Shown here: piece by piece, positions 10,220 to 43,633 of the stretch
How positions within the stretch are numbered: position 1 is the stretch's first letter
Layout of the letters: each line of letters opens with the position of its first letter
Source: an uncultured Candidatus Binatia bacterium
Lineage (GTDB): Bacteria; Desulfobacterota; Binatia; Bin18
Direction of reading: 5' to 3'
DNA: 64,000 nt
Assembly (NCBI GenBank): GCA_965200965.1
Contig: OZ241744.1
Span: forward strand, 1,728,001 to 1,792,000
The notes under the pieces: generated by a model
What the model was told of the DNA's origin: nothing
Seen by the model: the letters and a program-made list of their open reading frames with translations, nothing else
Database searches by the model: none
Position numbers and translations under genes: made by a program

Positions 10220-11218
10220 CTATGAGTCTATGGGCAGACTTTTATACGCCGCCCGCTCCTCCAGTACCCTGTCAATTCCAGTCATCCATTCCAAATCTCT
10301 TCCAATAACGAGTTCGGTCATTGCCGCGTGGTGGGTATTTTTCATGGAGATAGGCTTCGCCGCAAGGCCGTGTTTTCTCGCAAGCTCTCTCACTTCTTCT
10401 GCGTTGTCGTAGGTCATAATAAAATCGCCTTTTATTTTCTCACACCCCGCGAAAAGAGTTTCGTGATCTAATTCAAAATGCGTATACAGGCGGCTTCCCG
10501 CTTTCTTGCCGCCGGCCGTATAGGGAGGATCGATAAAAAAGACGACCTCTTTGTTATCTTTGTATTGTTCCAATGTCTGAAAGGCGTCTCTGTGCTCAAA
10601 AAACAACCTGTCCCGCGTCAGGTGAATCTCTCGCAGACGCTTGGCAAGCGTAGCAGGATACCAGCGTGAAAGAACGCCTTTCCCCGCTTCTCCGTTTTTC
10701 AGAAATCCGGCTCCCGACGCCAGAATCCCCCCGTGAAATGTCCGGTTTTTTATGATGGTTTGAAAAGCCCTCTCTTTCATCAATTTTCTCTTTGCATTGA
10801 TCTCGCTAAGAGCGTTCTCTTTCGACATTTCAAAATTGAGTATTCTCGAGGCGAGCCATTCTGCTTCCCCATCAATAAGGGTCTGCCACACGGCCGCGAT
10901 CTCCTCATCAAGCTCAACCATCAACGCGGCTTCAACCAGGTTTTCAAAAACTGCTGTTAAAGAAACGATACCGCCGCCGGCAAAAAGTTCAATCAAAAGA
11001 TTCGGACGCTTTGGTTGGCTGCACAGCCACTCCCGAAGACGAGGAACAAACCAAGTCTTACCGCCCGGATAGCGAAATGGACTTCGCTGGGGAACAGACG
11101 CAACATTCACCGCCTTCATACCCGGCAAGGGTCCGGCCACCTCAGGAGAAGTCTCAAGCTCAGCCAAAGGTTCCGCGGCTTCACCGAACAGCGATTTTTG
11201 CATGGAACTATGCCCCAA
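10220..11218 (-). CDS. Dam-like (D12 class) N6-adenine DNA methyltransferase
   Basis: SPFRYPGGK, ELFAGGG (SAM-binding), FIDPPY; AT-richer than flanks. Confidence 0.9.
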   Translation of the reverse strand: MGHSSMQKSLFGEAAEPLAELETSPEVAGPLPGMKAVNVASVPQRSPFRYPGGKTWFVPRLREWLCSQPKRPNLLIELFAGGGIVSLTAVFENLVEAALMVELDEEIAAVWQTLIDGEAEWLASRILNFEMSKENALSEINAKRKLMKERAFQTIIKNRTFHGGILASGAGFLKNGEAGKGVLSRWYPATLAKRLREIHLTRDRLFFEHRDAFQTLEQYKDNKEVVFFIDPPYTAGGKKAGSRLYTHFELDHETLFAGCEKIKGDFIMTYDNAEEVRELARKHGLAAKPISMKNTHHAAMTELVIGRDLEWMTGIDRVLEERAAYKSLPIDS

Positions 11219-12095
11219 GCGAGCCTTCGTTGGTTGGTGTAGAGGGCTGTTTTTGGTCCACCTTTGACTGAAGCAATTTCACAAAATTCTCAACCCTGCC
11301 AACCCTCGGCCGGGTTATCGTGTTCAAAGCCTCTGAGAATTTTGTATAGACGACCCTAGTTTTTGTCAAGTTATATCTGGGGGCTGCAAGGTCGAGAACA
11401 AGGGCATACACCAGCCAAGCCACTTCAGCCTCAGATTTTGCCACTTCTTCCAAAGCGGGGAGGGTATTGAAGAAAGAATGGTCTAAAGCGACCGCCATTT
11501 TCTTCTTCCAAGCGTGAAGAATTCCGCCCTTAAACATCAGTTGAGGGGCTAAGCGTTTTCGAGACGATGACAGAAAGTCAGGACGGGGAGAGTTGGGGTG
11601 ATCTGTCCAGTCCATTGAGGCATTCGCCCGGCAATCCGACATGTAATGCGAGAATGGCTCTCGTACATTTCCAGAAATGTAAACAGCCTGAATCTCTAAG
11701 GAGCCAAAGTCGTATACCCTTCCATTATGGTCATAAGCAGCTAACACCAAGTCAATATTCCCGGCAGACTTCCCATCAGAATCAGCCAGTCTTACCTCGG
11801 TCAACGGAGTCCAGGCAGTTCCTTCAGGGAAGAAGAAATCCGCAGCATCAGCGACGACACGCCAATTTTCACGAAATCGGATTGGACAGGTAATGACCGC
11901 GCTGTCCCGGTGGGAAATGCTACAGACCCCGAGGGGATCTTTCGCCTTGTCCTTGGTGCAAGCCGGAACCTTATTGTTGAATGGACAAAGTTTGTTCCCC
12001 CGATGGAGTATTGCCTGCGGACTAAAATCTGTCGGCAAATGGCCGAAAACCTCCGCTAAGGGCCGATTTTCCTTTTGCATCTTTCCTCTGTCCAC
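11208..12095 (-). CDS. NotI-family restriction endonuclease
   Basis: AEVFG followed by Cys cluster CPF...CTK...GVCS...TCPIRF; PD-(D/E)xK-like GNIDLV...LEIQAVYISGN; overlaps the MTase start. Confidence 0.82.
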   Translation of the reverse strand: MDRGKMQKENRPLAEVFGHLPTDFSPQAILHRGNKLCPFNNKVPACTKDKAKDPLGVCSISHRDSAVITCPIRFRENWRVVADAADFFFPEGTAWTPLTEVRLADSDGKSAGNIDLVLAAYDHNGRVYDFGSLEIQAVYISGNVREPFSHYMSDCRANASMDWTDHPNSPRPDFLSSSRKRLAPQLMFKGGILHAWKKKMAVALDHSFFNTLPALEEVAKSEAEVAWLVYALVLDLAAPRYNLTKTRVVYTKFSEALNTITRPRVGRVENFVKLLQSKVDQKQPSTPTNEGSLGA

Positions 12096-16154: not shown

Positions 16155-16184
16155 GCCGGATTACGCTTCGCTCATCCGCTCTAC
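16155..16184 (-). repeat. GTAG-type REP palindrome overlapping the ParA-like gene stop
   Basis: minus strand GTAG-AG-CGGATGAGC-GAA-GCGTAATCCG-GC, near-identical to the REPs at 20576 and 22695. Confidence 0.75.
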
Positions 16185-17177
16185 CCTCTCGAGAATCTTC
16201 CGCGCCAGCAGCTCGAAATCCCGCCGTGCATCAGTCGCAGCCGCGGCATGGCTGCCAATCGCGCCGTCAGCCGAAGTCAGATGAAAAATGGGCTTGCGCG
16301 CTTCCTGCGCCAGTGGCACGAGGCTGCGGTAGTGCCTGACGGTAGCCAGGGCGTGTTCTCCATCCTGGTGCGGCGTCTCGGGATACGGACCGCAGCTATC
16401 CCCCAACAGGCTGCGGGCGTATTCCCGCGGCATGCGATTGACCCACTTGTCATACGCTCTGACGGGGCGGTCCAGGCGCACGCTGTGCTGTTGCACCACA
16501 TAGCCGATGGGCCGCATTGTTCCGTCCGGCAGCAGAAAGTCCGGTTGCTGCCAGTTATCCTTTCGTTTTTCCCAGTCCCCCCGCCAGCGGTTGAGGGTCG
16601 GGCCGAGATTGCGCAGACCCTGGAGTGAGAACAGGTCCGCGCCCAGCGGAACAACGATGTAGTCGGTTGCGATCAAGGCCGAGCGATTAATCGCGCCCAG
16701 ATTGGGGCCGACATCGGCCAGGATGACATCGGCCTGCATCTGCTCAGCCCCGGCCTGCATGACGGTCGAGAAGGCGGTCAAAATGCGGAAGGGACGGTGG
16801 AGGAGGGTAGAGCCCAAGGCGTTGGGCCATTCCGCGGACAGGGTATCTTCAAAACCGGCCAGGGCCAGGTCGCCCCGTATCAGGTACAGATCGGGGGGGG
16901 CGACCGGCGTGAGCTGCGGCGGCTTGAGGTCGCCCACTTTCGTCAGCGGTAAGACACAGCGCAAAATGGTGTTCGCAGACGTGTCGTCGTCTGTGTCCCA
17001 GAGTGTTTCCAGATGCTCTTCATCCAGAAAAGCGGCAGTGAGGTTCGCCTGCGGGTCAAGGTCACAGGCCAGCACCCGATGCCCCATGTCGGACAGCATC
17101 CAGGCCAGATGATAGACCAGCGATGTTTTACCTACGCCCCCCTTGTTGTTGAAAAAAGTCAGGACAGGCGCGGTCAT
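16161..17177 (-). CDS. ParA/MinD-like (SIMIBI) ATPase, orphan type
   Basis: Deviant Walker A NNKGGVGKT, DLDPQANLT, DVGPNLG; 4-nt overlap with upstream gene; no parB. Confidence 0.88.
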   Translation of the reverse strand: MTAPVLTFFNNKGGVGKTSLVYHLAWMLSDMGHRVLACDLDPQANLTAAFLDEEHLETLWDTDDDTSANTILRCVLPLTKVGDLKPPQLTPVAPPDLYLIRGDLALAGFEDTLSAEWPNALGSTLLHRPFRILTAFSTVMQAGAEQMQADVILADVGPNLGAINRSALIATDYIVVPLGADLFSLQGLRNLGPTLNRWRGDWEKRKDNWQQPDFLLPDGTMRPIGYVVQQHSVRLDRPVRAYDKWVNRMPREYARSLLGDSCGPYPETPHQDGEHALATVRHYRSLVPLAQEARKPIFHLTSADGAIGSHAAAATDARRDFELLARKILERVERMSEA

Positions 17178-18391
17178 TGTGCCAGCCTCCCGGCGCGTAT
17201 CGTTATCCGCACAAAGTTGGGAGAAACATCAAACTCAGGTTCTGCGTGTCCCGCGGCCGCCAGGCGCTGCCTGGCCAGGGATATGCCAATGCCAAAACGC
17301 TGAACAAACCCGAGGGTTTTCATGGCGTCTGCCAGGTTGGGGTTGCGATAATCGACTACTCCCGGCTCCCCGAACCGCTCAGCCGTTACCACTCCGAACG
17401 CGCCGCCGGGACTCATTACTTCGATACGGTCATTGAACCAGTAGACATGCACCGGCGCGTTGGTGGCTTCGTATGTCCTGTGCATCAGCGCGTTACGCAC
17501 GAACTGCCGCAAGGCTTCCAGGGGGTAGTGCGCGGTGCGGTGTTCAACAGGGCCGCTTGTGACATCGACTGCCACGCGATTATGCGCTGTGAGTTTTTCT
17601 TCGAGCTGGCGAAGCAGGTCTGGAAGCGCGCCGCGTATCTCTTGGGCATCAAGTATGTCATCGGCATGGCTCGTCCCGTGTATCCTGAGAAATTGTACAT
17701 ACGCGCCCGGCAGAAAATCCTGCGGGCTTTTGCCGATCGCCAGCAGGCCCAGCACGGTCGCGGTGGGCTGGTCGGCAGCAACGATCATTTTTGTCGCGGC
17801 CAGTTGCTCGTTGAGACTGCGGGCATTGGCGGCCAGCATCTCGTCGGAAAATGCCCGGACCAGGTATTCGTTCGTGAACTGGGTCAGGTTGAGGTCTGCC
17901 AGACCGGCCGGAGGAACAGGCTGGATGTCAAAGGGACGGTCGCCAGACCGCCGTTTTTCGTTGAGTATCCTTTCATCCTGTGCCGTGGCGATACCGCGGC
18001 GCGAGCCAGTGCGGATACAGATAGCGCCTTTGCAGCGCACCGGCGGTGAGTCGGAGGGTTCCACCACAACAAGCGCAAGCTCCTTGCCGTGCAGCCGGCG
18101 CTTTTCCACGCTGAGCGAGGGCGGGGGCAGGATCGTGCCGTCGGTTTTCATGTCGGCCAACTGCCGGAGCAACTGGTCAGTCACAGACAGCCCGCACGAG
18201 GTGCCATTGTCTCGTACCCCGATGAACACAAAACCGGGCGCTCTGTGGTCGGGCAAGTCATTGGCAAAGGCGCAGATGGCTTGTCTGATCCTTGAAGCGA
18301 CGCGCTCGGAGAACGCCTCCTTGAACTCGACGCGGTCGGCTTCTCCAGCCGTGATGATCTCCAGCACCTCGGTATCGGTGAACTGCCGCAT
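17174..18391 (-). CDS. AlbA_2 (Schlafen-like) domain + HATPase_c_4 protein
   Basis: EADRVEFKE...ICAFAND...FIGVRDNG; YPLEALRQFVRNALMHRTYE...DRIEVMSPG...RNPNL...GIGI. Confidence 0.88.
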   Translation of the reverse strand: MRQFTDTEVLEIITAGEADRVEFKEAFSERVASRIRQAICAFANDLPDHRAPGFVFIGVRDNGTSCGLSVTDQLLRQLADMKTDGTILPPPSLSVEKRRLHGKELALVVVEPSDSPPVRCKGAICIRTGSRRGIATAQDERILNEKRRSGDRPFDIQPVPPAGLADLNLTQFTNEYLVRAFSDEMLAANARSLNEQLAATKMIVAADQPTATVLGLLAIGKSPQDFLPGAYVQFLRIHGTSHADDILDAQEIRGALPDLLRQLEEKLTAHNRVAVDVTSGPVEHRTAHYPLEALRQFVRNALMHRTYEATNAPVHVYWFNDRIEVMSPGGAFGVVTAERFGEPGVVDYRNPNLADAMKTLGFVQRFGIGISLARQRLAAAGHAEPEFDVSPNFVRITIRAGRLAQ

Positions 18392-18645: not shown

Positions 18646-18936
18646 TTATTCTGCTACTGTGACGTGTTCGTTTGCCCAGCGGGCGGGGAACGTCATGAAG
18701 CCCATAGCGGTGGTGAAAAATTCACCGGGGAGTTGGACGGTGATGGTCTCGCCGTCTATCTTCCTGATGATGCCACGAATGGAGCCGGCGGGCTTGTTGA
18801 CATGCCGGGCTTGGACAAACCCTGAAGACGGGCCGTTTTGGGTGGTAAGCGTCACCAGGTATTCGTCAGGAAACGCGCCGGTGCCGATGTGGCAGGGGAT
18901 ATTGACCGATTGTTCAAGCTGAAAGACCTTTGTCAC
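18646..18936 (-). CDS. hypothetical small beta-rich protein
   Basis: 96-aa ORF, GTG start behind GAAGGAGG RBS. Confidence 0.6.
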   Translation of the reverse strand: MTKVFQLEQSVNIPCHIGTGAFPDEYLVTLTTQNGPSSGFVQARHVNKPAGSIRGIIRKIDGETITVQLPGEFFTTAMGFMTFPARWANEHVTVAE

Positions 18937-18999
18937 TGTTTTGCCCTCCTTCGCAATGGCCCCGGGTGTATCGCGTCGGTGCTGGTCACTGCAAGCCCT

Positions 19000-19030
19000 G
19001 TAGGTCGGCTGAGCCGGCGGGCGTGAGCCG
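19000..19030 (+). repeat. GTAG-type REP (single, truncated)
   Basis: GTAG-GT-CGGCTGAGC-CGGCGG-GCGTGAGCCG. Confidence 0.65.
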
Positions 19031-19072
19031 CTGGATCGCTCTGATCGTGGGGTTGTGCATGGGGTTCCTTCC
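19031..19072 (-). pseudogene. relic 5' end of a Type IIG R-M gene
   Basis: AGGAACCCC-ATG-MHNPTIRAIQ matches AGGAACTCC-ATG-MPLSTLRAIQ at 26364; runs straight into a REP. Confidence 0.55.
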
Positions 19073-19076
19073 TCAA

Positions 19077-20534
19077 CTACTCCACTTTAAACTTCTGATT
19101 TCCCTGTTGCGCCTTCAATGCCTCATACTTGGCAAAATCCAGAGAGGCTTCTCTGTCGTAAAAGGCTATCTTATTGGCCCATCCCCGATTGTGGTACGCC
19201 GCAGCAAAGTCAGGCTTTAGCGAAATGGCGCGGTCGTAGTCCGCAAGCGCCGCTTCGAGTTGCCCAAGATTTCTCTTGACATTGCCCCTACCGGAGTACG
19301 CTTCGGCGTAATTAGGGTCTAACCTGATAGCCTCCTCGTAGTCCGCAAGGGCTTCTGCGTTGCGTCCGAGTTCCTTCTTGACGTTGCCCCGGTTGTTATA
19401 CGCCGCAGCGTAACCGGGATTTAACCTAATAGCCTCATCGTAGTCCGCCAAGGCGGATTCATACTCCTTAAGTGCGAACCTGACAGCACCCCGGCTGTTG
19501 TACGCATCATAGTAATCAGGTTTTAGTTCAATAGCCTTATTGTAGTCCGCCAAGGCGGAGGCGTAATCCTTCTCGCTAAAGAACTTAATAACACCACGGT
19601 TGTAGTACGCTACGGCGTAATTAGGGTCTACCCTAATAGCCTCCTCGTAATCCGCAAGGGCTTCTGAGTACTCCTCCAAGAAGATTCTAAAATCGCCTCT
19701 CTGACAATAATTGTCACTTTGCACATTCTCCCGCATTGGTTCTCGACGCTTCTCCTTTCTGATTTCCGCGGTGTAGTAATGCGCTGCGAGTTCAGCGTTG
19801 TAGTCGGATTCGGCTGTGTTTCTCTCAAGAAAACCCGCCGAGTCGGGAAACAGCGTTTTCTCCGAAATGCCCACCCTGTCCAACTCTTGCAAGATCGTTT
19901 TCTGGTGCTCTCTGGAGACGATGATCTCCCGCTCGATCATACTTTCTTCTATTTCGGGTGCTCCAAACAGGAAGACGGACTGCTGTACCGTGAGGCGTTG
20001 GCTATCCAGGACAGGATTGCCGACAGCGGGCCGCCACATATGCCATTGATCATCTCGCTCAAAGAATTCCTTGAGTTCCTGCTTCAAGTCTTCTTGGGTG
20101 GTGACTTCTTGAATCGTGCCAGGCTGCTGGACGTTGACCACAAAGACCTTACCGTCTGTTTCCCCATCAGTTTTGCAGGCAAACCAGAGGGCAACCAGAG
20201 GATTGTAGGTAAAGTCTATCAGCCCGGTCGCTACCCCGTTGTGTTGGAGGTGGGCCATGCACTCCAGAGGCGTCAGATTGCTGTAGGCGTTGGGGTAGCG
20301 GAGATTCACTTCGTAAATAATCTGGTGGATGTAGCCTCTGAACAGGGCAAACACTAACCCAGGATGTTTCAACGGGCGCTTTCGCAGGCGGCGCAGGGCG
20401 CTGCTCTGCACCTTCCAGCTTTCATCCTTTTGGCCGCGGTAAATGTAGCGGCGCTCTTCGCCAGAGGCGGCAAGCTTGTCTATGACTGCGATGTAATCCG
20501 CCAAGCTGGTTATGGATTTTTGATCGTCGCTCAT
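19077..20534 (-). CDS. FRG-domain protein fused to 6 TPR repeats
   Basis: YIYRGQ...LQHNGVATGLIDFTYNPLVALWFAC...QQSVFL; 34-aa TPR units. Confidence 0.9.
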   Translation of the reverse strand: MSDDQKSITSLADYIAVIDKLAASGEERRYIYRGQKDESWKVQSSALRRLRKRPLKHPGLVFALFRGYIHQIIYEVNLRYPNAYSNLTPLECMAHLQHNGVATGLIDFTYNPLVALWFACKTDGETDGKVFVVNVQQPGTIQEVTTQEDLKQELKEFFERDDQWHMWRPAVGNPVLDSQRLTVQQSVFLFGAPEIEESMIEREIIVSREHQKTILQELDRVGISEKTLFPDSAGFLERNTAESDYNAELAAHYYTAEIRKEKRREPMRENVQSDNYCQRGDFRIFLEEYSEALADYEEAIRVDPNYAVAYYNRGVIKFFSEKDYASALADYNKAIELKPDYYDAYNSRGAVRFALKEYESALADYDEAIRLNPGYAAAYNNRGNVKKELGRNAEALADYEEAIRLDPNYAEAYSGRGNVKRNLGQLEAALADYDRAISLKPDFAAAYHNRGWANKIAFYDREASLDFAKYEALKAQQGNQKFKVE

Positions 20535-20578
20535 ACGCTTCCCTCCACCGCCCTGATTTGCCCCTCGGTCAGCCCGCA
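20531..20578 (-). pseudogene. relic 3' end of a Type IIG R-M gene, TGA overlapping FRG ATG
   Basis: encodes CGLTEGQIRAVEGSV* versus YGLTEEEVRAVEGSRA* of the intact gene ending at 22756. Confidence 0.7.
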
Positions 20579-20640
20579 GGGCGGGTTAGCCGGCGGGCGT
20601 AACCCGCCATGTCGGATTACGCTTCGCTAAGCCGACCTAC
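20576..20640. repeat. inverted REP doublet (REPIN/BIME-like)
   Basis: gcagggcgggttagccggcgggcgtaacccgcc-at-gtcggattacgcttcgctaagccgacctac; terminal CTA is the TAG stop of the TPR gene. Confidence 0.8.
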
Positions 20641-21836
20641 GCGCTTTCCAATTCATTGATTTTTGCTTCTGCATCCCGCACGAATTCATTCTTCCCCTGC
20701 TGTTGCGCCAATGTCAGCGCGTGTTTAAAATCCGTCAAGGCGTCCGCAGTGCGCCCGAGTGCCTGCTTGGCCTCGCCCCGGTTGCTGTATGCCTCAGCAA
20801 AGTCACGCTCTAGTTTGATGGCTCGATCATAGTCCACCAAGGCGGAGGCGTACTCCTTAAGCTCTACCTTGGCATTGCCCCGGTTGTAGTACATCTCAGC
20901 CAAATCAGGCTTTAGCTCGATGGCGCGGTCATGGTCCGCAAGTGCCGCTTCGGATTGCCCAAGCTTTGCCTTGACATTGCCCCGGTTGCCGTACGCCTCA
21001 GCATAATCAGGCTTTAGCTCGATGGCGCGGTCATAGTCCGCAACGGCCTCCGCATCGCGCCCGAGTGCCTGCTTGGTGTTGCCCCGGTTGCTGTACGCCT
21101 CAACAAAGCCAGACTTTAGCTCAATGGCGCGGTCATAGTCCGCCAAGGCTTCCGCGTTGCGCCCGAGTGCCTGCTTGGCAGTACCCCGGTTGTAGTACGC
21201 CTCAACAAAGTCAGGCTTTAGCTCAATGGCGCGATCATAGTCCGCAAGCGCCGCTTCAGGTTGCCCAAGCTCTGCCTTGGCGTTGCCCCGGTTGCTGTAC
21301 GCCTCAGCGTCATTAGGCTTTAGGGCGATAGCGCGGTCATAGTCGACAAGCGCCGCTTCATACTCCTTAAGATCGAAATTGGCGACGCCCCGGTTGCTGT
21401 ACGCCTCAGCAAAGCCAGGCTTGAGCTCAATGGCACGGTCATAGTCCGCCAAGGCGGAGGCGTACTCCTTAAGCTTTACCTTGGCATTGCCCCGGTTGTT
21501 GTACGCATTAGCATAATCAGGCTTGAGCTCAATGGCGCGGTCATAGTCCGCCAAGGCGGAGGCGTACTCCTTAAGCGCTGCCTTGGCATTGCCCCGGTTG
21601 TTGTACACCTCAGCGTCATCAGGCTTTAGCTCGATAGCGCGGTCATAGTCCGCAAGCGCCGCTTCATACTCCTTAAGATCGGAATTGGCGACGCCCCGGT
21701 TGCTGTACGCATCAGCAAAGTCAGGCTCTAGCCTGATAGCCTCACCGTAGTCAGCAATGGCTTTCTCGTATTTGCCCAGCGCGACTCTGAAATTGCCTCT
21801 TTGAAAATAATTGTCGCTTAGCGCTTTCTTATTCAT
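20637..21836 (-). CDS. 11-TPR protein (C-terminal half of a split FRG-TPR paralogue)
   Basis: 11 highly similar 102-bp TPR units; ATG at 21836 preceded by GGAGG (9-nt spacing), overlapping the FRG stop (ATGAATAA). Confidence 0.8.
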   Translation of the reverse strand: MNKKALSDNYFQRGNFRVALGKYEKAIADYGEAIRLEPDFADAYSNRGVANSDLKEYEAALADYDRAIELKPDDAEVYNNRGNAKAALKEYASALADYDRAIELKPDYANAYNNRGNAKVKLKEYASALADYDRAIELKPGFAEAYSNRGVANFDLKEYEAALVDYDRAIALKPNDAEAYSNRGNAKAELGQPEAALADYDRAIELKPDFVEAYYNRGTAKQALGRNAEALADYDRAIELKSGFVEAYSNRGNTKQALGRDAEAVADYDRAIELKPDYAEAYGNRGNVKAKLGQSEAALADHDRAIELKPDLAEMYYNRGNAKVELKEYASALVDYDRAIKLERDFAEAYSNRGEAKQALGRTADALTDFKHALTLAQQQGKNEFVRDAEAKINELESA

Positions 21837-22653
21837 TGCCCTGGTCCTCCGCTTTTCTGATCTCCTCGGTGTAGTAATGCTCTGCGAGTTCAGCGTTGTA
21901 GACGGATTCGGCCGTGTTTCTCTCAAGAAAACCCGCCCAGTCGGGAAACAACGTTTTCTCCGAAATGCTCACCCTGTCCAACTCTTGCAAGATCGTTTTC
22001 TTGTGCTCTCTGGAGACGATGATCTCCCGCTCAAGCATACCTTTTTTTATTTCGGGTGCTCCAAACAGGAAGACGGACTGCTGCACCGTGAGGCGTTGGC
22101 TATCCAGGGCAGGATTGCCGATGACAGGTTGCCACAGATGCCATTGTTCATCGATCTCAAAAAACGTCTTGAGTTCCTGCCCCAAAGCTCTTTTGGTCGT
22201 GACTTCTTGAATCGTGTTGGGCTGGACGTTGACCACAAAGACCTTGCCGGCTGTCTCCCCAGCGGTTTCGCAGGCAAACCAGAGGGCAACCAGGGGACTG
22301 TAGGTAAAGTCTATCAGCCCGGTCGCTACCCTGTGGTGTTGGAGATGGGCCATGCACTCCAGGGGCGTCATCGGCTCGCTGTAGGTGTTGGGGTAGCGGA
22401 GTTGTACTTCGTCAATAATCTGGTGGATGTAGCCTCTGAACAGGTATGATATCGTCATCCCTTCATAGTTACGACTATAATCACGGCCGTATCCAGATTG
22501 TTCCAGGCGACGCAGGGCGCTGCTCTTGACCCCCCAGCTTTCATCCTTTTGTCCGCGGTAAATGTAGCGGCGCTCTTCGTCAGAGGCGGGAAGCCCGTTT
22601 ATGACTTCGATGTATTCCGCCAAGCTGGTTATGGATTTTTGATCGTCGCTCAT
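21829..22653 (-). CDS. FRG-domain protein (N-terminal half of split paralogue)
   Basis: Near-identical to the N-terminus of 19077..20534 (MSDDQKSITSLA, YIYRGQKDESW, IDFTYSPLVALWFAC). Confidence 0.85.
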   Translation of the reverse strand: MSDDQKSITSLAEYIEVINGLPASDEERRYIYRGQKDESWGVKSSALRRLEQSGYGRDYSRNYEGMTISYLFRGYIHQIIDEVQLRYPNTYSEPMTPLECMAHLQHHRVATGLIDFTYSPLVALWFACETAGETAGKVFVVNVQPNTIQEVTTKRALGQELKTFFEIDEQWHLWQPVIGNPALDSQRLTVQQSVFLFGAPEIKKGMLEREIIVSREHKKTILQELDRVSISEKTLFPDWAGFLERNTAESVYNAELAEHYYTEEIRKAEDQGNE

Positions 22654-22697
22654 CGGCTTCTCTCCATCGTCCTGATTTGCTCCTTGATCAGCCCGTA
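22650..22697 (-). pseudogene. second relic 3' end of a Type IIG R-M gene, TGA overlapping FRG ATG
   Basis: encodes YGLIKEQIRTMERSR*. Confidence 0.6.
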
Positions 22698-22759
22698 GGG
22701 CGGGTTAGCCGTCAGGCGTAACCCGCCATGTCGGATTACGCTTCGCTAATCCGACCTAC
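22695..22759. repeat. inverted REP doublet (REPIN/BIME-like)
   Basis: GTAGGGCGGGTTAGC-CGTCAG-GCGTAACCCGCC-AT-GTCGGATTACGC-TTC-GCTAATCCGAC-CTAC; supplies the TAG stop of the IIG gene. Confidence 0.82.
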
Positions 22760-25700
22760 GCCCGACTGCCCTCCACCGCCCGCACTTCCTCCTCCGTCAA
22801 CCCATACAGCCCATACACCAGCCGGTCAATCTCGGCTTCCTGCTCGGCGGTGTCTGCCGAGGGGTCGGCGGCTTTGGCCTTGAGGATGCGGTCAAGCAGC
22901 CGGATGGACGGGCGCTGCTTGGCGGCTGATATCTCAGGGACGGGCAGGCGCTCTACGGCAAACCTTTTCCATCGAGTGACACCCATTCCAGAAGTCAGGC
23001 CCGTACTTTTCATAAACCACGTCATCAGATTAGAATTGAGGACAGCGCACAGATATTTGATTGCTCGCCCGGACATCATAAATGCGGTATCAGCGCAGAA
23101 CATTTCGCTCGCATCATAAGCGAATCGCCCTTGCTCAGTCAGGTCCATCCAGAACAGCTTTTCTTTGGTAAACTCCTTGTAAGCTCCCGAACTGTAATAA
23201 TCTACTTGCAGTTGCCACCATTGATAAGGCACCTGCCCCGTCTTTGGATTAGCTCCGCCCCGCCGCTTCAAAAGCTGCTTCTTGTGCGGTAACAGATGTT
23301 TTCGCACTGCGGGATATTCATTTTCTGCGATGTTGGAATGGCTGTATATCAGCCACACCCCCGCCCACTCTGCCCGATACCGCCGAATGTCCCGGCCCCG
23401 CAGCACCGGCTTGATGATGTCCGCGGAAGCCGGGTCTTCGTCAATCAACGCCTGCCTGGTGGTGTCGTCTATAATGAAGGCCGTGTTGTAGCCGGTCTTG
23501 ATGCCATAGTTGATCTTCACATCCCAGTCTTTCAGCGGCGTCCCTTTCGCCTCCATCTTATCCATGACGGACCATTCCAGGGCCGACAACGCACCCCACG
23601 GCTTTTCGCCTTGCGGGCGCAACACCCCCCACAGGCTTTCGGCCGGCGGAAAATCCTTGTCGGGCAAGCGGTCCATGTCTACCGCTCTGCCGGCTTCTCC
23701 GCTTTTGCCCTGCCGCGCAATCAGAACGCTGGTATCAACAATAGCGTTTTCAAAAACGTCTTTGCCCATTTCCAGCAGGCGCAGCGGTGTGTGTTGCTCG
23801 GAGAACCAGCGCCGCAGGGGCTTGCCGTATTCGGCCTTCAGCCAACTGTTTGAGGTGATGTAGGACAAGAGGCCGCGTTGCGGTGTCAGCAGTTGGCCGC
23901 CTCTCTCATAGAAAAGCTGATAGATGTCGCCGCTGCGGGCGAAGGTGGCAAAGCCGGCGTCTTTATAGAGTTTGCCCAGCTCGCCGGCGTTCTTCTGTAA
24001 CTGAACATACGGCGGATTGCCGATCACCACATCAAAGCCCTCAGCCACACCGAACATATACTCAGCGTCAAACCAGCCGGCGCGGGCGTTCTGGTCGTAG
24101 GGGTCCCACTGCGCGATCTTGTCGGCGTCATCCGCGGGAAACCCAAGGCTTTCCAATGCCTGCGCCAACGACTTCCGTAACTGCTTGTCTTTTCTCTTGT
24201 ACTCCAGCTTTTTCCGGCGCGTGGTGGCGTGAAAATGCCGCTCGCGGTTGTCCAGTAACTGACGCTCCACCTGCTGCGCTTTTGCGCTCGTCAGCATCCG
24301 CTCGCCCTTGAGACCCAGAAGCGTATCCGCAGCAATAAAGCGCGTTTCCAGGTTGGGCAGCGGCTTGAGGCCGAAATTGTCCGCGGCGGGGTCGGGCTCC
24401 TGCTCAATGGCCAGCGAGATGAAAAAACGCAGCTTGGCGATCTGGCAGGCGACCGGCTGAATGTCTACACCGAAGATGCTGTTCTGAATCAGGTACAGCT
24501 TGCGGCCAAAGTCGGAATCGCGGTAGCGTTCAAAAGTCTGGCTGATCTCGGTCAACTCGGCCTCGCGGTCGCCCTGGTCCCGGGTATCAAAGGCGGCTTG
24601 GGCCCGGTCCCGGGCGATCGCTTTTTGCAGCCCCTCCCAACGGGTGTTGTCAGGGTCAAGCCGGCGCAAGGCCAGGGTAAGCTTGTGCAGCACGCCCATT
24701 GGAAACGCCCCGGAGCCAACCGCGGGGTCCAGCACCTTGAGCCCGGCTATGGCCCGGACAACCGCGTCGGTCTCAGCCGCGTCAAACAACGCGCTGGCGT
24801 CGCTGAAGGCATCGGCATAGTCCAGCAGATAACGAAGGCGTTCCTGCCAGAACACGCGGTCGTTGTCGCTCGGCTGGCAGCGTTCGGCCAGGGCGGCGAC
24901 AAGGGCCTCATCAACCATGTAGTCCACCACCGGCCGCGGGGTGTAGTAAGAGCCGGTCTGCTTGCGGGCCGTGTCGCGGGTTTCGGGGTTGTAGGCGGCC
25001 AGCAGGTTTTCAAACACCTTGCCGAGCAGCTCAGGGTCAAGGGCGACTTCCTGCTCTATGGGCGTGTTCTCCTCAACCGTGAACTTGTAACTGTTGAACA
25101 GCGGAATAAGGCCGTGGTCATCAAAGAACAGCCGGTTGGGGATGGAATAGTCCCGCCGGTGGCGGGGGTTGTCGGTAAAACAGTCAATCCGCCAGCCCTG
25201 CTCCGAGGTGGCTTCTTCGCTGTCGAGGCAGTCAAACAGCCCGCCGTTGATGAACGGCGTCCGGCTGAACAGGGCCAGCAGTGCGTCGGGGTTGCGGAGT
25301 TCGGAGCGGTAGCGGTACAGCGAAAAATTGCGGTGGGTGGTACGCTTCCCGCTGCTGAAGCCGCGCTTGGTCCTCTCGGTGTTCAGGGTGGCGAAAAACA
25401 GGTTCTGGAGCACCGCCCGGTACCAGGAATCGCCGGTGTCCCGGTCGTAGTCGCGGAGCAGGGCCGCGACCTCGCTTTCGTTGAACAGCTCGTCCGCTAC
25501 CAGGCCCTTTTCCTTGATGAACCAGACAAACAACAGCCGGGTAATGAGACGGATGATGTGTTCTTCGGGCGACAGGGTTCTGGCCGGCGAGGTGTCACCA
25601 GATCGTCCTTTGGGAAACCGGGCCTCTGTGACGCCACGGCTGAACCAGTCGAACAACTGCCGGTAGAAGCGGCGGTTCAGTTCCCGCGTGTCCAGGGTGT

Positions 25701-26364
25701 CGAGCCAGGCGTTGAGCAGCCCGTCAAAATTGTGGGGGATATGGTGGCTGGTCATCCAGTCCAGCAGATTCTCCAGCGACAACCCGGCCAGGATGTCGAG
25801 GTGGGCACGGTGCGGGTCGGTGGGGTTGATTTCACGGATCAGCGACACGCGGCCCAGCACATCACGGCTGTGGTCGAGCGTGTTGCGTCGGCGATGGACA
25901 AAGGCCAGGCTGAGCCGGTCGTCAGAGCTGCGGAACAGGACCACCACAGGTGCGGGGAAACGCTTGTTGATCTCGCGGGTGAAAGCGGCGTAGCGGCTCC
26001 GGGGGTAGCTGGCCTGTTTCAAGGCAACGGCAAAGAACAGAAAGCTCTGCTGCCGGCCCTGCTCAAAGGCCGCCAGCCCGGAATCCAGCCGCGGGGGCTG
26101 GCTGGCGGCGATCTCATCGCTTGTCACCTGAAACAGCAGCCGGACCGAGGCGGCGTTCTCACACAAGGCCCGCTCTGAGTCTGTGCCCGGCCGCTCAGCC
26201 GGAAAAGCCCGCAGGAAGTCGTCAACAGCCCCGGTCTGCTCGCTCAGGCGGCGGTCACTGCGGTAGCCGAGGGCGGCCAGCAGCTCGGTGGCCGCGGCGG
26301 CAAAGTCCGGCCCGGCAGCGTTCTTCAAGGCGGTCTGGATGGCGCGGAGGGTGCTCAAGGGCAT
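22756..26364 (-). CDS. Type IIG / Eco57I-like N6-adenine R-M enzyme with TaqI-C-like specificity domain
   Basis: PFINGGLF, ELLGKVFENLL, GSYYTP, LDPAVGSGAF, VIGNPPY, GIKTG, EIDRLVYGLYGLT; start MPLSTL after RBS. Confidence 0.92.
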   Translation of the reverse strand: MPLSTLRAIQTALKNAAGPDFAAAATELLAALGYRSDRRLSEQTGAVDDFLRAFPAERPGTDSERALCENAASVRLLFQVTSDEIAASQPPRLDSGLAAFEQGRQQSFLFFAVALKQASYPRSRYAAFTREINKRFPAPVVVLFRSSDDRLSLAFVHRRRNTLDHSRDVLGRVSLIREINPTDPHRAHLDILAGLSLENLLDWMTSHHIPHNFDGLLNAWLDTLDTRELNRRFYRQLFDWFSRGVTEARFPKGRSGDTSPARTLSPEEHIIRLITRLLFVWFIKEKGLVADELFNESEVAALLRDYDRDTGDSWYRAVLQNLFFATLNTERTKRGFSSGKRTTHRNFSLYRYRSELRNPDALLALFSRTPFINGGLFDCLDSEEATSEQGWRIDCFTDNPRHRRDYSIPNRLFFDDHGLIPLFNSYKFTVEENTPIEQEVALDPELLGKVFENLLAAYNPETRDTARKQTGSYYTPRPVVDYMVDEALVAALAERCQPSDNDRVFWQERLRYLLDYADAFSDASALFDAAETDAVVRAIAGLKVLDPAVGSGAFPMGVLHKLTLALRRLDPDNTRWEGLQKAIARDRAQAAFDTRDQGDREAELTEISQTFERYRDSDFGRKLYLIQNSIFGVDIQPVACQIAKLRFFISLAIEQEPDPAADNFGLKPLPNLETRFIAADTLLGLKGERMLTSAKAQQVERQLLDNRERHFHATTRRKKLEYKRKDKQLRKSLAQALESLGFPADDADKIAQWDPYDQNARAGWFDAEYMFGVAEGFDVVIGNPPYVQLQKNAGELGKLYKDAGFATFARSGDIYQLFYERGGQLLTPQRGLLSYITSNSWLKAEYGKPLRRWFSEQHTPLRLLEMGKDVFENAIVDTSVLIARQGKSGEAGRAVDMDRLPDKDFPPAESLWGVLRPQGEKPWGALSALEWSVMDKMEAKGTPLKDWDVKINYGIKTGYNTAFIIDDTTRQALIDEDPASADIIKPVLRGRDIRRYRAEWAGVWLIYSHSNIAENEYPAVRKHLLPHKKQLLKRRGGANPKTGQVPYQWWQLQVDYYSSGAYKEFTKEKLFWMDLTEQGRFAYDASEMFCADTAFMMSGRAIKYLCAVLNSNLMTWFMKSTGLTSGMGVTRWKRFAVERLPVPEISAAKQRPSIRLLDRILKAKAADPSADTAEQEAEIDRLVYGLYGLTEEEVRAVEGSRA

Positions 26365-26392: not shown

Positions 26393-29300
26393 TCAGGCGG
26401 CACGGATGACGAGCCAGCTGACAAGTTCAAAGTCATCGTCGGGCGTGCCGGCACTGGAAGCCACCGGCAGCTTGAAATCGCGGTTGCTGCGCAGCTGGGC
26501 GACCTGGGTGGCGTGGTTCGCCTCGTCGATGTGGGCAAGCACCGCCTGCACCAGCCGGTCGTACCGGGCCATGTTCCGGCCGTGGCGGGTTTCGCGGTCA
26601 AACTGGTCGCACAGCCGTTGCAGCGGCTTGGTCCTGCCCTCTGCCGCGGCCTCAAATACGTCGAGCGCCTGCCGGGCGTTGGTGCAGCCGTGGCGGATGT
26701 CGCCGGTCTCGTGGATGTAGACCGCATAAAAGGGATGGATCGGGCTGGCCGCTTTTTCGCGCCTGTCCGTGCCGGCCCCACGCTGGCGCAGAAAAAATAT
26801 CGCGCCGGGTTGGGCCGGGCCGTCCGTGACCGCGTACACCCCGGCCGGCGTGGCTTCGAGTTCGGCCCGGTTTTTTTCGAGATAGCGCAGGAGCTGGGCA
26901 AAGAAATAATCCAGGGTGAAATCGCTCATCACCACGCCGTCGTCCAGCTCGTCGAGGTCCAGCACCTCTTCCTGCAACTGGCGGAGCTGCCGGTCACGGA
27001 AGTTCAACTCCATCTGGGCCTGCGCAAAGGTGAAGGTGTTCAGCGGGTCGTCATCACCGCTGGCCGCGGCGTCGGCCAGCGCCATGCGTGCCTCAACCCG
27101 GCTTTGCAGGCGGAGATAGACATCCATGTCTTTGGTCGGCCAGTAGTTAATCATCCGCACCCTTGTGTTGCGGCTGCCGATGCGCTCAATCCGCCCAAAG
27201 CGCTGGATGAGGCGGACCGGATTCCAGTGAATGTCATAGTTCAGCACGGTGTCGCAGTCCTGGAGGTTCTGCCCCTCTGAAATGCAGTCGGTGGCGATCA
27301 GCAGGTCAATGTCGCCCTCAACCCCCGCGGCCCGGCCCCGCGCCCGGGGGGCAAAGTTGCTCAGGATAGCGTTGAAATTGTTGTCGCCGTAACTGGTATG
27401 GGTCACATCGCCCGACACCATCGCCATGTGCAGCCCCAGTTCATCGGCCAGCCCGCGCAACTCCCGGTAGAGATATTCGGCCGTGTCCCTGAAGGTAGTG
27501 AACACCAGCAGCTTGCGGTTTGGCCGGCCGTCGCGGTCGGTCGGCGGGCAGGCCACCTTGTGGCGCAGCTCGCTCCGCATCTCGTTGAGCTTGCCGTCCC
27601 GCTCCGGCGTGATGGTCTTCAACTCGTCCAGGACCGCGCTCAGGGTGTGCCGGTCGCGGCGGACATCGGCCTGCCAGCGGGGCAGGTCCAGCTCCCGCAG
27701 GTGATACGGGCGGCGCGCCCGATTGACCAGGAACTCCTCATCGTCTTCGTCAGGCTCGGGCAGGATATCGCCCGGCATCTCCGCGCCGCGGTGTTCGTGG
27801 CCATGCTGCTCGTAGTCGGCGATCCTGGCCAGCAAGCTGTCCATTTTGTCAATGGTGCGGCCCAGGGTTTCCGCCAGAGCATAGGCCGAACTCTCCAGCC
27901 GCTTCAGAAAGTTCGTCCGCATCATGCCGAGCAGGAAGCGCTCGCGGTCTTCCTGATTGAAGTTTCTCTCCCGCTTTTCCCGGACCAGGACCTGCTTTGC
28001 CTTCTGGCTCACCAGGTACTCGGAGGGCCTGTAGATGGACAGGGCGAATTGGCCGATCTGCTCGGACAGGGCTGTGTACGACAGCGCCCCGTCCAGGTCG
28101 GTCGGCGGGTAGCGGTTGTCCGGCTGCCGGGTTGTGGGAAACTCGCCGATGGTCTGCATTTCTTCGGCGTAGAAGGTCTTGATCTGCCGCCGCGAGCGGG
28201 CGATGGACACGCCGCCGAGCAACTGGAAAAAATCGGCCCCGAGTTTTTCCAGCAGGTGCGCCTTATCTTTTGGCCCGGCCTTGTCCTGCCAGTCGCTGAA
28301 CGCCTTCTGGGCCCGGCCCAGCACCGTGCCGATATGGCTGATGCCCAGACTGTCGCGGAACACATCCTCGCGCTTTTCGGTCATAAGATAGATCTGGTTG
28401 CGCAGGTCAAGAAGCGAGGTGTTGACCGGGGTGGCCGACAGCATCAGCACCCTGGTTTGCGCCCCGTGCCGGATGACTTCTTCCAGCAGCCGTGCGTAGC
28501 GGCTGCGGCCCACCCGCCCGCTGGCGTCGGGCCGGGGCCTGGTGTCGTTGCGGAAGTTGTGCGACTCGTCAATCACCACCAGATCAAAATTGCTCCAGTT
28601 GAAGCGTGCCAGGTCAATATCCCCGGCCCTGCCGGTGTCGCGGGACAGGTCGGTGTGCGACAGCAGGCTGTAGCCGAAACGGTCGGCGAGAAAGGGGTTG
28701 TCGGTCTGGGCGTGGACAGCCGGATACAAGGCCCAGTTGTCACGCAGTTTTTTTGGGCATAGCACCAGCACCCGTTCGTTGCGCAGTTCAAAGAACTTGA
28801 TGACCGCCAGCGCGGTATAGGTCTTCCCCAAGCCCACGCTGTCGGCCAGGATGCAGCCCTTGTGGCGCAGCAGACGGGCGATGACGCTCTTGGCCCCGTC
28901 TTTCTGGAAGCCGTACAGCGCCTTCCAGATGGCGGTGTCGTACAGGTGGGTGTCGGACAGGTCGCGCTCGCCGGCCTGTCTGGCTTCCAGCTCGTCGCCG
29001 AACAGCTCAAACAGGGTCTTGTAGTAGACGAGTTCCGGCGCGTGGTCCTTGCCGAGGCGGGCCAGCGCGTCCAGTACCTCGTGTTTCACGTCGCTGGTCA
29101 GCGCGGTATCGGCCCAGATAGCGTCAAACCAGTGCCGCAGGTCGGCGCGTATCTCTTCGGAGGCGCTTGCCAGGTTGATTTCCATGTTGGTGCCGGGGCC
29201 GCAGCCCAGCCCCCTCCGGGTGAAATTCGAGCTGCCCACCACCGCCACACCCCCGGCGGCCCCAGACTCGGCGAGATACATCTTGCCGTGCAGAAAACTG

Positions 29301-29647
29301 GACTGACTGATGGAGCGGATTTTGACCCGCCCGCTCTGGACCCAGGCGGTGCAGTCCCGGGCGAGGTGTGTCTGCCGCAAGGTGTGGCTGGGCGACAACC
29401 GGCCTTCGGTCAGGCAGAAGGCTTTGGGGTCTTTTGGCCCGGGGTCCACTTCGCCGACCGAGGCCGGGTCGCCGAACAGAAACCGCACATCTTTGATGCC
29501 GCTCAGTTCGTGCTGGAGTGCCTCATAGCCGTAAATGCTGAAATAGGCCGAAACCAGGCGAAAGACTGTGGCGTCCGCCAGACCCTGGCGCAGGTAGTCA
29601 ACGACCGGGCGGGAGTGGTTGTCCAGAATGTGTTCGTATCTCTGCAT
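26393..29647 (-). CDS. PLD-nuclease + SNF2-family helicase
   Basis: HGKMY...GSSNFT (PLD), ADSVGLGKT, DESHNFRN, LSATP, SEGQNLQD, WNPVRLIQRFGRIER. Confidence 0.92.
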   Translation of the reverse strand: MQRYEHILDNHSRPVVDYLRQGLADATVFRLVSAYFSIYGYEALQHELSGIKDVRFLFGDPASVGEVDPGPKDPKAFCLTEGRLSPSHTLRQTHLARDCTAWVQSGRVKIRSISQSSFLHGKMYLAESGAAGGVAVVGSSNFTRRGLGCGPGTNMEINLASASEEIRADLRHWFDAIWADTALTSDVKHEVLDALARLGKDHAPELVYYKTLFELFGDELEARQAGERDLSDTHLYDTAIWKALYGFQKDGAKSVIARLLRHKGCILADSVGLGKTYTALAVIKFFELRNERVLVLCPKKLRDNWALYPAVHAQTDNPFLADRFGYSLLSHTDLSRDTGRAGDIDLARFNWSNFDLVVIDESHNFRNDTRPRPDASGRVGRSRYARLLEEVIRHGAQTRVLMLSATPVNTSLLDLRNQIYLMTEKREDVFRDSLGISHIGTVLGRAQKAFSDWQDKAGPKDKAHLLEKLGADFFQLLGGVSIARSRRQIKTFYAEEMQTIGEFPTTRQPDNRYPPTDLDGALSYTALSEQIGQFALSIYRPSEYLVSQKAKQVLVREKRERNFNQEDRERFLLGMMRTNFLKRLESSAYALAETLGRTIDKMDSLLARIADYEQHGHEHRGAEMPGDILPEPDEDDEEFLVNRARRPYHLRELDLPRWQADVRRDRHTLSAVLDELKTITPERDGKLNEMRSELRHKVACPPTDRDGRPNRKLLVFTTFRDTAEYLYRELRGLADELGLHMAMVSGDVTHTSYGDNNFNAILSNFAPRARGRAAGVEGDIDLLIATDCISEGQNLQDCDTVLNYDIHWNPVRLIQRFGRIERIGSRNTRVRMINYWPTKDMDVYLRLQSRVEARMALADAAASGDDDPLNTFTFAQAQMELNFRDRQLRQLQEEVLDLDELDDGVVMSDFTLDYFFAQLLRYLEKNRAELEATPAGVYAVTDGPAQPGAIFFLRQRGAGTDRREKAASPIHPFYAVYIHETGDIRHGCTNARQALDVFEAAAEGRTKPLQRLCDQFDRETRHGRNMARYDRLVQAVLAHIDEANHATQVAQLRSNRDFKLPVASSAGTPDDDFELVSWLVIRAA

Positions 29648-29672
29648 TGAGGCGTCTCTCGCCTGGACCTGC

Positions 29673-30605
29673 CTATCCGGCCCACCCCCCGGTTTGCACA
29701 TAGCGGGCCGCGGCCAGCCCCGCGGTTGCGCCGTCGCCGGCCGCGGAGACCAGCTGGCGCGACGACTCGGCACGCACATCGCCGGCCGCCAGGATGCCCG
29801 GTACCGCGGTCCGCATCTGGAGGTCGGTCAGAATCTGGCCCCGGGCGTTCAGGGCAACGCGCCCGTTGAGAAAGCCGGTGTTGGGCCTGAGACCGACATA
29901 GATGAAGACGCCGGCGGCCTCAAGGCGGGAGGACTGGCCGGTTTGCAGGTCTTCGAGGTGTACCCGCTCAACACCCTCGCCGCCCTCAATCGCCCGCAGC
30001 GCGGTATTCCACCGGAAGCGCAGTTTGTCGGCTTGCCGGGCGCGGTCCTGGAGGGCGCGGCAGGCCCGCAGCGTGTCCCGGCGGTGGACCAGCGTGACCG
30101 CTGAGGCATACCCGGTGAGGTGCAGGCCCTCGTCCAGTGCGGCATCACCACCGCCGACCACCACCACCGGCTTGTCCATGAAAAACGCGCCGTCGCAGGC
30201 CGCGCAGTGCGACACGCCCCTGCCGGCAAAGGCTGCCTCACCCGGAATGTCCAGGCTGGCAAAGCGCGAGCCGCTGGCCACAATCAGGGCCCTGGCCCGC
30301 AGCTCGCCGGCGTCGGTATCCAGTACCCTGTCCGCGCCCTCCAGCCGGACCGAGGCCACCTCGCTCAGTCGCATGTCCAGGCCAAAGCTCATGGCCTGCT
30401 GCTGCAACAGCGGCCCCAGCGTATAGCCGGCCACCCCGTCGGGAAAGCCGGGGTAGTTTTCAATCCGCTCGCAGTTGAGGACCTGGCCGCCGGCCGAAAA
30501 GCGTTCCAGCAGGACGGTCCGGCAGCCGGCCCGGGCCGCGTACAGGCCGGCGCTGAAGCCGGCCGCCCCGCCGCCGATAACGATAATGTCGCAGGTCCCA
30601 GCCAT
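29673..30605 (-). CDS. trxB: thioredoxin-disulfide reductase
   Basis: IGGGAAG, IENYPGF, GVSHCAACDG, VGGGDAA, AAGDV. Confidence 0.88.
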   Translation of the reverse strand: MAGTCDIIVIGGGAAGFSAGLYAARAGCRTVLLERFSAGGQVLNCERIENYPGFPDGVAGYTLGPLLQQQAMSFGLDMRLSEVASVRLEGADRVLDTDAGELRARALIVASGSRFASLDIPGEAAFAGRGVSHCAACDGAFFMDKPVVVVGGGDAALDEGLHLTGYASAVTLVHRRDTLRACRALQDRARQADKLRFRWNTALRAIEGGEGVERVHLEDLQTGQSSRLEAAGVFIYVGLRPNTGFLNGRVALNARGQILTDLQMRTAVPGILAAGDVRAESSRQLVSAAGDGATAGLAAARYVQTGGWAG

Positions 30606-30800: not shown

Positions 30801-31018
30801 CAAGCAGGTCACAGCCGGCCAGTTCAGCACCCGGCCACTATAGCCCGATACACCGCCAAACCGAAGAGGCGCAGCCGCGTCTTTCCGCGCAACCGGCGGC
30901 ACGGTTGACATATGCCGCCAGAATGGGCTAAGCGTTGTGCCAAAGAAGCCTGAAAACGAAATCAGCCCTTGCGCAAGGCCGCCGAGGGTGCTCAGTTGGC
31001 CGGCAGGCGGGCGTCAAT

Positions 31019-43344: not shown

Positions 43345-43364
43345 TCCCCCTCCTCTTCTTGCTC

Positions 43365-43540
43365 CTGGTCAATGAAGGCCGTTGGCATTTGTTTGTGGAA
43401 GAGGTCACTCATAGGGTTGACGATATCAGGCGCGGCGTGCGCCACGCGAGCGGCTGGGCGAGGCGTTCGGGGCGGAGGGTCAGGTTGAAGCCCTGCTCAA
43501 AGGGGTGGCCGGCCACACCGCGGAAGCGTTCGGCAAAGCG
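43365..43540 (-). pseudogene. frameshifted internal fragment of a second DUF5131 gene
   Basis: RFAERFRGVAGHPFEQGFNLTLRPERLAQPLAWRTPRLI /fs/ VNPMSDLFHKQMPTAFIDQ. Confidence 0.8.
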
Positions 43541-43633
43541 ACAACGTATTCGGGGTTATCAATCCTCGATTGATCTGCACTTCCTCCGCTGGAAACACTC
43601 TTTCCTTGGGATGGCCCTTGCCTCTTTACATAT

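Follow-up and report, generated by a model that had tools for sequence, protein, structure and literature searches.

The window analysed here is a stretch of 64,000 nucleotides (nt) of contig OZ241744.1 (assembly GCA_965200965.1), from an uncultured Candidatus Binatia bacterium. The subject of this work lies at positions 19077-22653, where three open frames on the minus strand contain two FRG domains in tandem and arrays of tetratricopeptide repeats (TPRs):

21829..22653, minus strand: copy A FRG gene, 274 amino acids (aa), a stand-alone gene that ends at TAA, with a predicted ADP-ribosyltransferase (ART) fold
20637..21836, minus strand: copy A TPR gene, 399 aa, 11 units (a conserved first unit, nine homogenised internal units and a capping unit)
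19077..20534, minus strand: copy B, 485 aa, an FRG domain fused to 6 TPR units

This bacterium, most likely a sponge-associated one to judge by the titles of its relatives' records, has a duplicated FRG-TPR unit, of which one copy is a two-gene operon and the other a fused gene. The tandem FRG pair, noticed in an earlier note made from the letters of the window, was confirmed with Pfam, in which PF08867 matched both copies (E 8e-18 and 1e-17, 65 bits in both; gathering score 25) and TPR models matched copy B and the copy A TPR gene. The N-terminal (F/Y)RG motif of the family is present as YRGQ at residues 32-35. The earlier note had described each FRG domain as attached to a TPR array, and this holds for copy B, which is fused, but not for copy A, in which the FRG and the TPRs are encoded by separate genes. 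The copy A TPR gene is read in a different frame from the FRG gene, and at their junction (21829..21850, minus strand) the ATG at 21836 and the FRG stop codon TAA ending at 21829 share an 8-nt overlap (ATGAATAA), while a GGAGG (21850-21846) nine bases 5' of the ATG provides the TPR gene with its own ribosome-binding site. In the alignment the junction of copy B is 2 nt longer, and an in-frame Met (19736) is retained at the position of the copy A TPR-gene start. The two copies can be aligned from about 110 nt 5' of the start through the first TPR, and their FRG domains are identical at 206 of 259 residues (79.5%), with a ratio of nonsynonymous to synonymous substitutions (dN/dS) of 0.63, compared with a median of 0.19 for the remaining 44 pairwise comparisons of ten FRG genes from the Binatia clade. 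The domains are therefore not near-identical, and the FRG is not an especially conserved effector between A and B, as had been supposed. The G+C content of the module is 52-56%, against 61% for the genome.

The split in copy A is not an error and is the usual state among close relatives. Contigs of two runs (X1 and X2; two samples, two studies) span 21547-21999 with zero differences, where X1 is possibly the source sample and X2 has a depth of 2. A close copy was found in three of seven congeneric genomes and was split in all three. Among 59 close GTDB loci (L027-L085; by title Ca. Binatia, Poribacteria, one Entotheonella and one Thermodesulfobacteriota, a set that may overlap the congeners, so that the counts are not additive), 58 were split and one was fused (L036). 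Two coupled genes that always stand together, as in type II toxin-antitoxin pairs, were found in 57 of the 58 split loci, with TPR sequence directly behind the FRG, and in the other (L039) the contig ends 67 nt after the stop codon. The two-gene operon is thus the normal state in the clade, which the earlier note had overlooked. Copy A could be suspected of being a pseudogene with a frameshift, of resulting from an assembly error or of giving a fused protein by programmed frameshifting, since its junction differs from that of copy B by only 2 nt and the TPR frame is open for 30 codons 5' of its ATG; however, the junction was matched exactly in contigs from two studies, and a -7 overlap geometry, the ATG and a purine-rich site are common to all eight Binatia loci. 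In Poribacteria the TPR start lies between -58 and +155 relative to the FRG stop, and therefore a fixed programmed frameshift is excluded. We regard this explanation of copy A as highly improbable.

The FRG family is large (4,726 clusters at 50% identity), and among its 150 best representatives at that level of clustering 101 have an FRG with fused TPRs, 19 a long tail of another kind, and the remaining 30 are short. In a quick tree, midpoint-rooted and without a clade test, the outgroups are fused, the fused proteins of the Binatia-like group are scattered among stand-alone proteins with six different junction sequences, and copy B shares a branch with a stand-alone protein (support 86). The rows labelled split among P0001-P0055 of this tree are stand-alone proteins whose downstream gene lies outside the data, and the count of 110 stand-alone to 10 fused is biased by a 480-aa limit, so that no frequency is drawn from it. 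Copy B is best read as a re-fusion, because its linker uses the frame lying 5' of the TPR start in split loci and because the Met is kept. Comparison of the sequences thus suggests a fused ancestor, one fission in sponge-symbiont lineages and repeated re-fusion, of which copy B would be one case. Strains differ in this state at one and the same locus: in X5 and X8, two runs of a single study, an A-like first TPR stands behind a B-type fused junction (joint 21833-19734), with single-base insertions at 21840 and 21849. A single-copy state in run X5 was considered and dropped, as the short side of its joint (20641-22728) has 30 letters and the joint is explained by the shared hairpin. No relatives were found in viral contigs with the two patterns searched, and no RNA data set was listed as containing the sequence. 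Tandem stacking as in the window is common, because many loci (L035, L054, L059, L061, L070-L073, L076, L077 and L082) carry several adjacent FRG-TPR modules that belong to different subfamilies.

The TPR partner has a repeat period of 102 bp, as the earlier note had stated, and its counts of 11 units in copy A and 6 in copy B were also correct. Its description of highly similar repeats applies to the internal units of copy A (60-93% DNA identity, mean 75%) but not to those of copy B (55-70%, mean 60%), for which Tandem Repeats Finder gave no report. The proposed mosaic structure, and with it recombination among TPR units, received moderate support, with p<0.001 in a site-level permutation of 20 units and, when codon blocks were permuted, p=0.05-0.07 with only array A and about 0.01 once L027 was included. 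The number of units varies between strains and species, in agreement with the earlier note: a 947-nt contig of run X4 spans 1653 nt of the window with about seven TPR units fewer, and partners have 3 to 11 units in Binatia and up to 25 in Poribacteria. The first unit appears to be excluded from homogenisation, that of copy A being 80% identical to unit 1 of L027 compared with about 50% to its own internal units. Across nine Binatia partners, unit 1 is 70% and unit 2 54% identical (between-genome figures for the last and internal units were left unused owing to register shifts in L030, L031 and L034), and positions 2, 5, 6 and 9 of unit 1 read E/D-F-Q-N in all nine. The internal units are most variable at positions 2, 5, 9, 12, 13 and 17, most of which line the ligand groove, as is true of TPRs generally. 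The dN/dS of the TPR genes is 0.17-0.32. In a model of the fused copy B (predicted local distance difference test score, pLDDT, 93.8; predicted template-modelling score 0.81), solved TPR solenoids align from residue 244 and take in the last helix of the FRG (247-263), and because the alignments begin at residue 244 this helix would continue the superhelix, the split lying between it and unit 1. The split is therefore predicted from the model to fall inside one solenoid, where two chains would re-dock; the copy A TPR gene begins directly with repeat 1 and has no visible signal peptide. Other genes of similar build were seen in the same genome at C1 ~1918200-1919700 (a protein that by eye resembles a TIR domain with homogenised TPR repeats) and 1267400-1268900 (a stand-alone homogenised TPR gene), and the TPR genes there are ~65% identical in DNA to array A. 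At L050:6749-10882 and L055:6768-9452 the TPR partner continues into the next gene, with a helicase-like tail and a DUF2779, respectively.

The FRG is predicted to have an ADP-ribosyltransferase fold, which was matched weakly but consistently. With the model of the copy A FRG (pLDDT 74), the top Foldseek rows were ARTs and RES NADases, each of them weak (cholera toxin A1, with the best E of 0.08, MbcT, NatT, Arr and PARPs). In VIA 49 of 50 rows were ART-fold by title (Z 2.9-5.7, root-mean-square deviation 2.8-6.0; best row Z 5.7, deviation 3.2, 119 residues aligned). The link to NAD-processing folds, which the earlier note had offered tentatively, agreed with these searches and with the literature: the available text of PMC9503650 assigns Frg to the ART superfamily and describes it as a potential antiviral effector that might be an NADase. 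The FRG would likely consume nicotinamide adenine dinucleotide (NAD+). Among the sequences of the PDB an FRG profile had no match (best E 0.42), NCBIfam lacks an FRG model, an Atlas search returned FRG clusters only, and fold searches with the copy B model gave only TPR proteins among the matches listed and were uninformative on the FRG part. Across 139 distant homologues, nine residues (R33, G34, Q105, H106, T111, D115, R187, Q191 and D238) show a conservation of 96-100%; both copies keep all nine, and copy B has a Gln at a Lys position that is 98% conserved elsewhere. As judged from dN/dS (0.19 in the Binatia clade and 0.17 in Poribacteria), the FRG is under purifying selection across the clade; because the value among A, B and L027 is ~0.6, the enzyme of this sub-lineage seems to change faster than that of its relatives. 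The genome contains a third, distant FRG gene without TPR (L026:775-8914), which is coupled to a GmrSD-N gene and has a SMODS nucleotidyltransferase, a patatin and a type I specificity subunit as neighbours.

The way in which the operons decay bears on the role of the partner. From the 60 split loci, L053 and L067 were left out of the lesion count because the TPR extends past the end of the contig, and in 14 of the remaining 58 the FRG core is broken by stop codons, frameshifts, deletions or, in one case, an IS1595 insertion. Of these 14 operons, 13 keep an intact TPR frame and one (L074) has a broken one, and no case of an intact FRG without N-terminal TPRs was found among the 58; the TPR C-terminus is altered in three partners (L050, L055 and L069). 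With lesions taken as proportional to gene length and kinship ignored, the asymmetry has a binomial p of 3e-6, or 1e-3 when counted conservatively as 12 versus 3. Such decay is expected when one gene restrains a harmful one, as has been established for toxin-antitoxin and restriction-modification (R-M) pairs. These lesions suggest that the TPR restrains the FRG and is not only a sensor.

The surroundings of the module link it to defence, as the earlier note had proposed when it placed the genes in a defence island. The features upstream of, between and behind the two copies are the following:

26393..29674, minus strand: PLD(HKD)-SNF2 helicase gene, the upstream gene of the island (Pfam PLDc_2, SNF2 and Helicase_C; PADLOC HKD+Snf2, E 4e-104)
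22756..26364, minus strand: Type IIG R-M enzyme gene (Eco57I-like, TaqI_C; REase_MTase_IIG, E 5e-126), adjoining the module upstream
22690..22759, minus strand: GTAG-type double hairpin, between the R-M stop codon and the copy A leader
22650..22695, minus strand: copy A leader, a fossil of the last Type IIG codons, whose TGA overlaps the FRG ATG
20531..20640, minus strand: second hairpin and R-M-tail leader, 5' of copy B, the start of the duplicated unit
18999..19040, plus strand: GTAG-type hairpin that faces copy B at its 3' end, recognised from sequence and fold

The module lies directly behind the Type IIG R-M and PLD-SNF2 helicase genes, which are matched in PADLOC, and its leaders retain traces of the former. 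The copy A leader aligns with the R-M tail with a score of 45, which none of 5000 random genome segments reached, and the copy B leader with a score of 51. The fossil was detected in all ten Binatia leaders (A, B and the eight loci), nine at p<0.01 and the tenth at 0.046 against 5000 random segments, in most cases in the frame with the TGA that overlaps the ATG of the FRG; in L027 the Type IIG gene is intact, and it overlaps the start of the FRG gene (ATGA). In Poribacteria, with Poribacteria tails as queries, 25 of 47 leaders reached p<0.01, these leaders being kin and not independent. Because the leaders still encode the R-M tail, the operon arose downstream of a Type IIG gene and coupled to it, also at sites where housekeeping genes now surround it, and this position is the ancestral one. 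The hairpin element of copy A (fold -47 kcal/mol for 115 nt) has 28 blastn matches in the genome, and the hairpin/leader element of copy B is 92% identical to it; the hairpins, which we take to be REP-like (repetitive extragenic palindromic) by appearance, had no Rfam match at E<=0.1, and the repeat was not found in the parts of the eight other Binatia leaders that were inspected. A shared regulatory RNA was considered for the leader, which is explained instead by the R-M coding tail together with the hairpin repeat.

Several neighbours of the module and its relatives were recorded. AlbA_2 and ParA-like genes lie downstream of the module: an AlbA_2/Schlafen and RecG-C protein is coupled to a ParA-like ATPase (16161-18391, minus strand), and the same pair lies near the FRG operon of L021. 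Just behind copy B, a 96-aa open reading frame (18646-18936, minus strand) had no Pfam, PADLOC or NCBIfam match, and its look-alikes in the Atlas are unnamed clusters of 90-94 aa at 0.93, one with phage members, with low recognition. At three different sites (L029, L032 and L033) an N6-methylase-like protein of 944-1074 aa adjoins the operon upstream, between the old R-M context and the leader, and in four different contexts (L037, L038, L061 and L082) FRG-TPR genes lie directly 3' of a Pycsar pair (PycTIR and PycC). Farther away in the window are an unusual pairing of a NotI-family endonuclease with a D12-class adenine methylase (10220-12095, minus strand; best PADLOC match PD-Lambda-5_B), separated from the island by housekeeping genes, a 1169-aa beta-helix-like repeat protein with 69-87-bp repeats (30935-34444, plus strand) and arrays of 33-bp repeats (43052-44385), whose short coiled-coil type also occurs in L021.

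The explanation that we favour, with about even confidence, is that the module is an abortive toxin linked to R-M and held back by a TPR partner, which likely also senses infection. The FRG would consume NAD+, and the TPR solenoid, as a coupled gene in A and a fused part in B, would hold it inactive with a clamp at unit 1. A phage protein bound in the variable internal repeats would release the FRG, and the released FRG would stop the infected cell, as a reserve for the R-M enzyme. We infer that the FRG would be toxic, that the TPR would inhibit it, that the variable repeats would serve as the sensor and that the module would stand in for the R-M enzyme. A bolder and more tentative form of this idea, which we would bet against, is that of an undescribed NLR-like receptor family without an NTPase, in which a NAD-destroying FRG is clamped by TPR repeat 1, the inner repeats are shuffled to change the phage protein sensed, and changes of 1-5 nt at one junction turn a two-chain toxin-antitoxin into a one-chain receptor or the reverse, both forms standing side by side here and switching between strains.

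Several results weigh against the favoured explanation. FRG is a large family with a predicted activity, and no measured activity was found in the literature searched, which was mostly without subscription journals; the Foldseek and VIA scores are under the tools' own clear level, and the ART fold does not separate an NADase from a transferase. The lesion test is uncorrected for kinship, and all lesions lie outside Binatia. An intact TPR beside a dead FRG also fits an FRG-independent role, and dN/dS values of 0.17-0.32 cannot separate the two; the TPR genes of Poribacteria are under purifying, not diversifying, selection (median 0.245). Because FRG genes without TPR exist, the third one in this genome included, the FRG would not always depend on TPR restraint. 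Only 16 of the 60 split loci have a recognised defence gene (R-M, N6-methylase, helicase, Pycsar, TIR or PDC) within ~6 kb, a rate obtained with PADLOC on 112 of 299 neighbour representatives and Pfam on 36 proteins and standing without a matched control, and most Poribacteria loci lie among housekeeping genes.

Three other explanations have to be weighed against a restrained toxin. The TPR could be an activator in a plain sensor-effector receptor, where an FRG that is inactive alone is switched on by a TPR bound to a phage protein. Fused forms are common among the distant relatives (101 of the 150 representatives), stand-alone FRG genes without TPR exist, and TPR sensors are established in Avs systems. 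The loss of an activator, however, would be harmless, so that lesions hitting the TPR first should be at least as common, given that it is the longer gene, and the count was 13 FRG-only operons against 0 to 3; we therefore consider an activator unlikely. Somewhat less likely again is selfish addiction, in which a toxin-antitoxin pair stabilised the R-M island and spreads with it, no phage is sensed and the repeat variation is neutral slippage. The coupled two-gene layout with the toxin first, the decay that begins with the FRG, the persistence of the module at many unrelated sites after loss of the R-M gene, and the nearby transposases and hairpin repeats would all be expected of such a pair. 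Fusion, though, would abolish the differential decay that addiction needs, and yet fused forms recur and dominate the wider family, and the repeat variation is concentrated at positions 2, 5, 9, 12 and 13, which are groove positions of TPRs.

It could also be argued that the TPR is a repeat protein of sponge symbionts with a job of its own, such as host or protein interaction, and that the FRG is a dispensable or decaying passenger. By the record titles the clade is confined to sponge-associated lineages, the genome has other homogenised TPR genes, and both the intact TPRs beside dead FRGs and the dN/dS of ~0.6 among A, B and L027 would agree with a passenger. This we hold improbable, since across the clade the FRG is under purifying selection (median 0.17-0.19) with its invariant residues kept, the TPR starts at repeat 1 with no signal peptide visible, and the first repeat is conserved where it would meet the FRG helix. 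A restrained toxin thus remains the explanation that we prefer. The natural split offers a clean comparison of the enzyme alone, with its partner and as a natural fusion, all from one genome, which would settle whether the FRG is a NAD-consuming toxin and whether the TPR restrains or activates it. The module is, besides, a small-scale example of a gene that passes back and forth between a toxin-antitoxin and a fused-receptor form, and its R-M-tail fossil shows that a leader can still reveal a defence origin once the island is lost.

Comparison with known systems places the module near, but not within, several of them. The FRG as a defence candidate is already in print, as PDC-S15 and as a predicted NADase; the split and re-fusing operon was not found in the literature searched. 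With PDC-S15 the module shares its link to R-M, and 13-14 profiles of this family in PADLOC match the FRG (E 1e-32 and, at best, 3e-33), membership being judged by profile match without PADLOC's coverage rules. We take the "S" prefix to stand for single-gene. By the available text of Payne et al. (bioRxiv 10.1101/2024.01.29.577857), PDCs are candidates defined by their position within BREX, DISARM or type I R-M loci, and PDC-S15 is not named in the main text. The module here is not inside such a locus but behind a helicase and Type IIG pair, although the embedding defined the candidates and not each homologue. The passages of PMC9503650 (citing Burroughs and Aravind 2020) on Frg of the ART superfamily, with which the FRG shares its predicted ART fold and its place as a predicted NADase and antiviral effector, leave a TPR partner, a split operon and re-fusion unmentioned. 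A word search of PMC12366544 gave no mention of FRG, and no paper on an FRG-TPR system or its split operon was found in the literature searched; the PDC supplements may describe FRG-TPR architectures.

With the RES-Xre toxin-antitoxin systems that degrade NAD+ (MbcTA, NatRT and ParST), the module shares a putative ART-like toxin and a coupled partner gene, and MbcT and NatT were found at Foldseek ranks 3-5, with VIA giving Z 3.6 for MbcT and Z 2.9 for ParT. The module differs in its partner, a TPR solenoid that has no DNA-binding domain and is encoded downstream of the toxin-like gene, and no RES or Xre/MbcA domain was matched in Pfam at E<=0.001 in any of the three proteins. DSR2 and the fused toxin-antitoxin CapRel are further defences that combine an effector with a helical-repeat or sensor part. 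In Avs, according to the available part of PMC12803255, it is established that TPR-like sensors bind phage proteins and relieve autoinhibition, and what the module has in common with Avs and Dsr1 is a predicted enzymatic effector coupled with a TPR-like repeat, which might act both as its restraint and as the sensor of phage protein. Unlike in these defences (Avs, DSR2 and CapRel), the repeats here are short canonical TPRs of 34 aa, on two chains in most close relatives; a STAND NTPase or P-loop, as in Avs and bacterial NLRs, was seen neither in the Pfam scan nor in the copy B model, and the Pfam scan of the module proteins contained no SIR2 or toxSAS domain. For fungal NLRs, the available text of PMC12222747 gives high internal conservation of the repeats, with identity over 80%, and the module is alike in having repeats more similar within than between genes, length polymorphism and shuffling; it differs in its lower identity (mean 75% in A and 60% in B) and in lacking a nucleotide-binding domain. 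Taken from its genes, the FRG-TPR module would be a variant of a predicted kind of defence gene, differing from PDC-S15, itself a defence candidate, in the obligate TPR partner of its FRG, whether split off or fused, and in its place behind a Type IIG gene.

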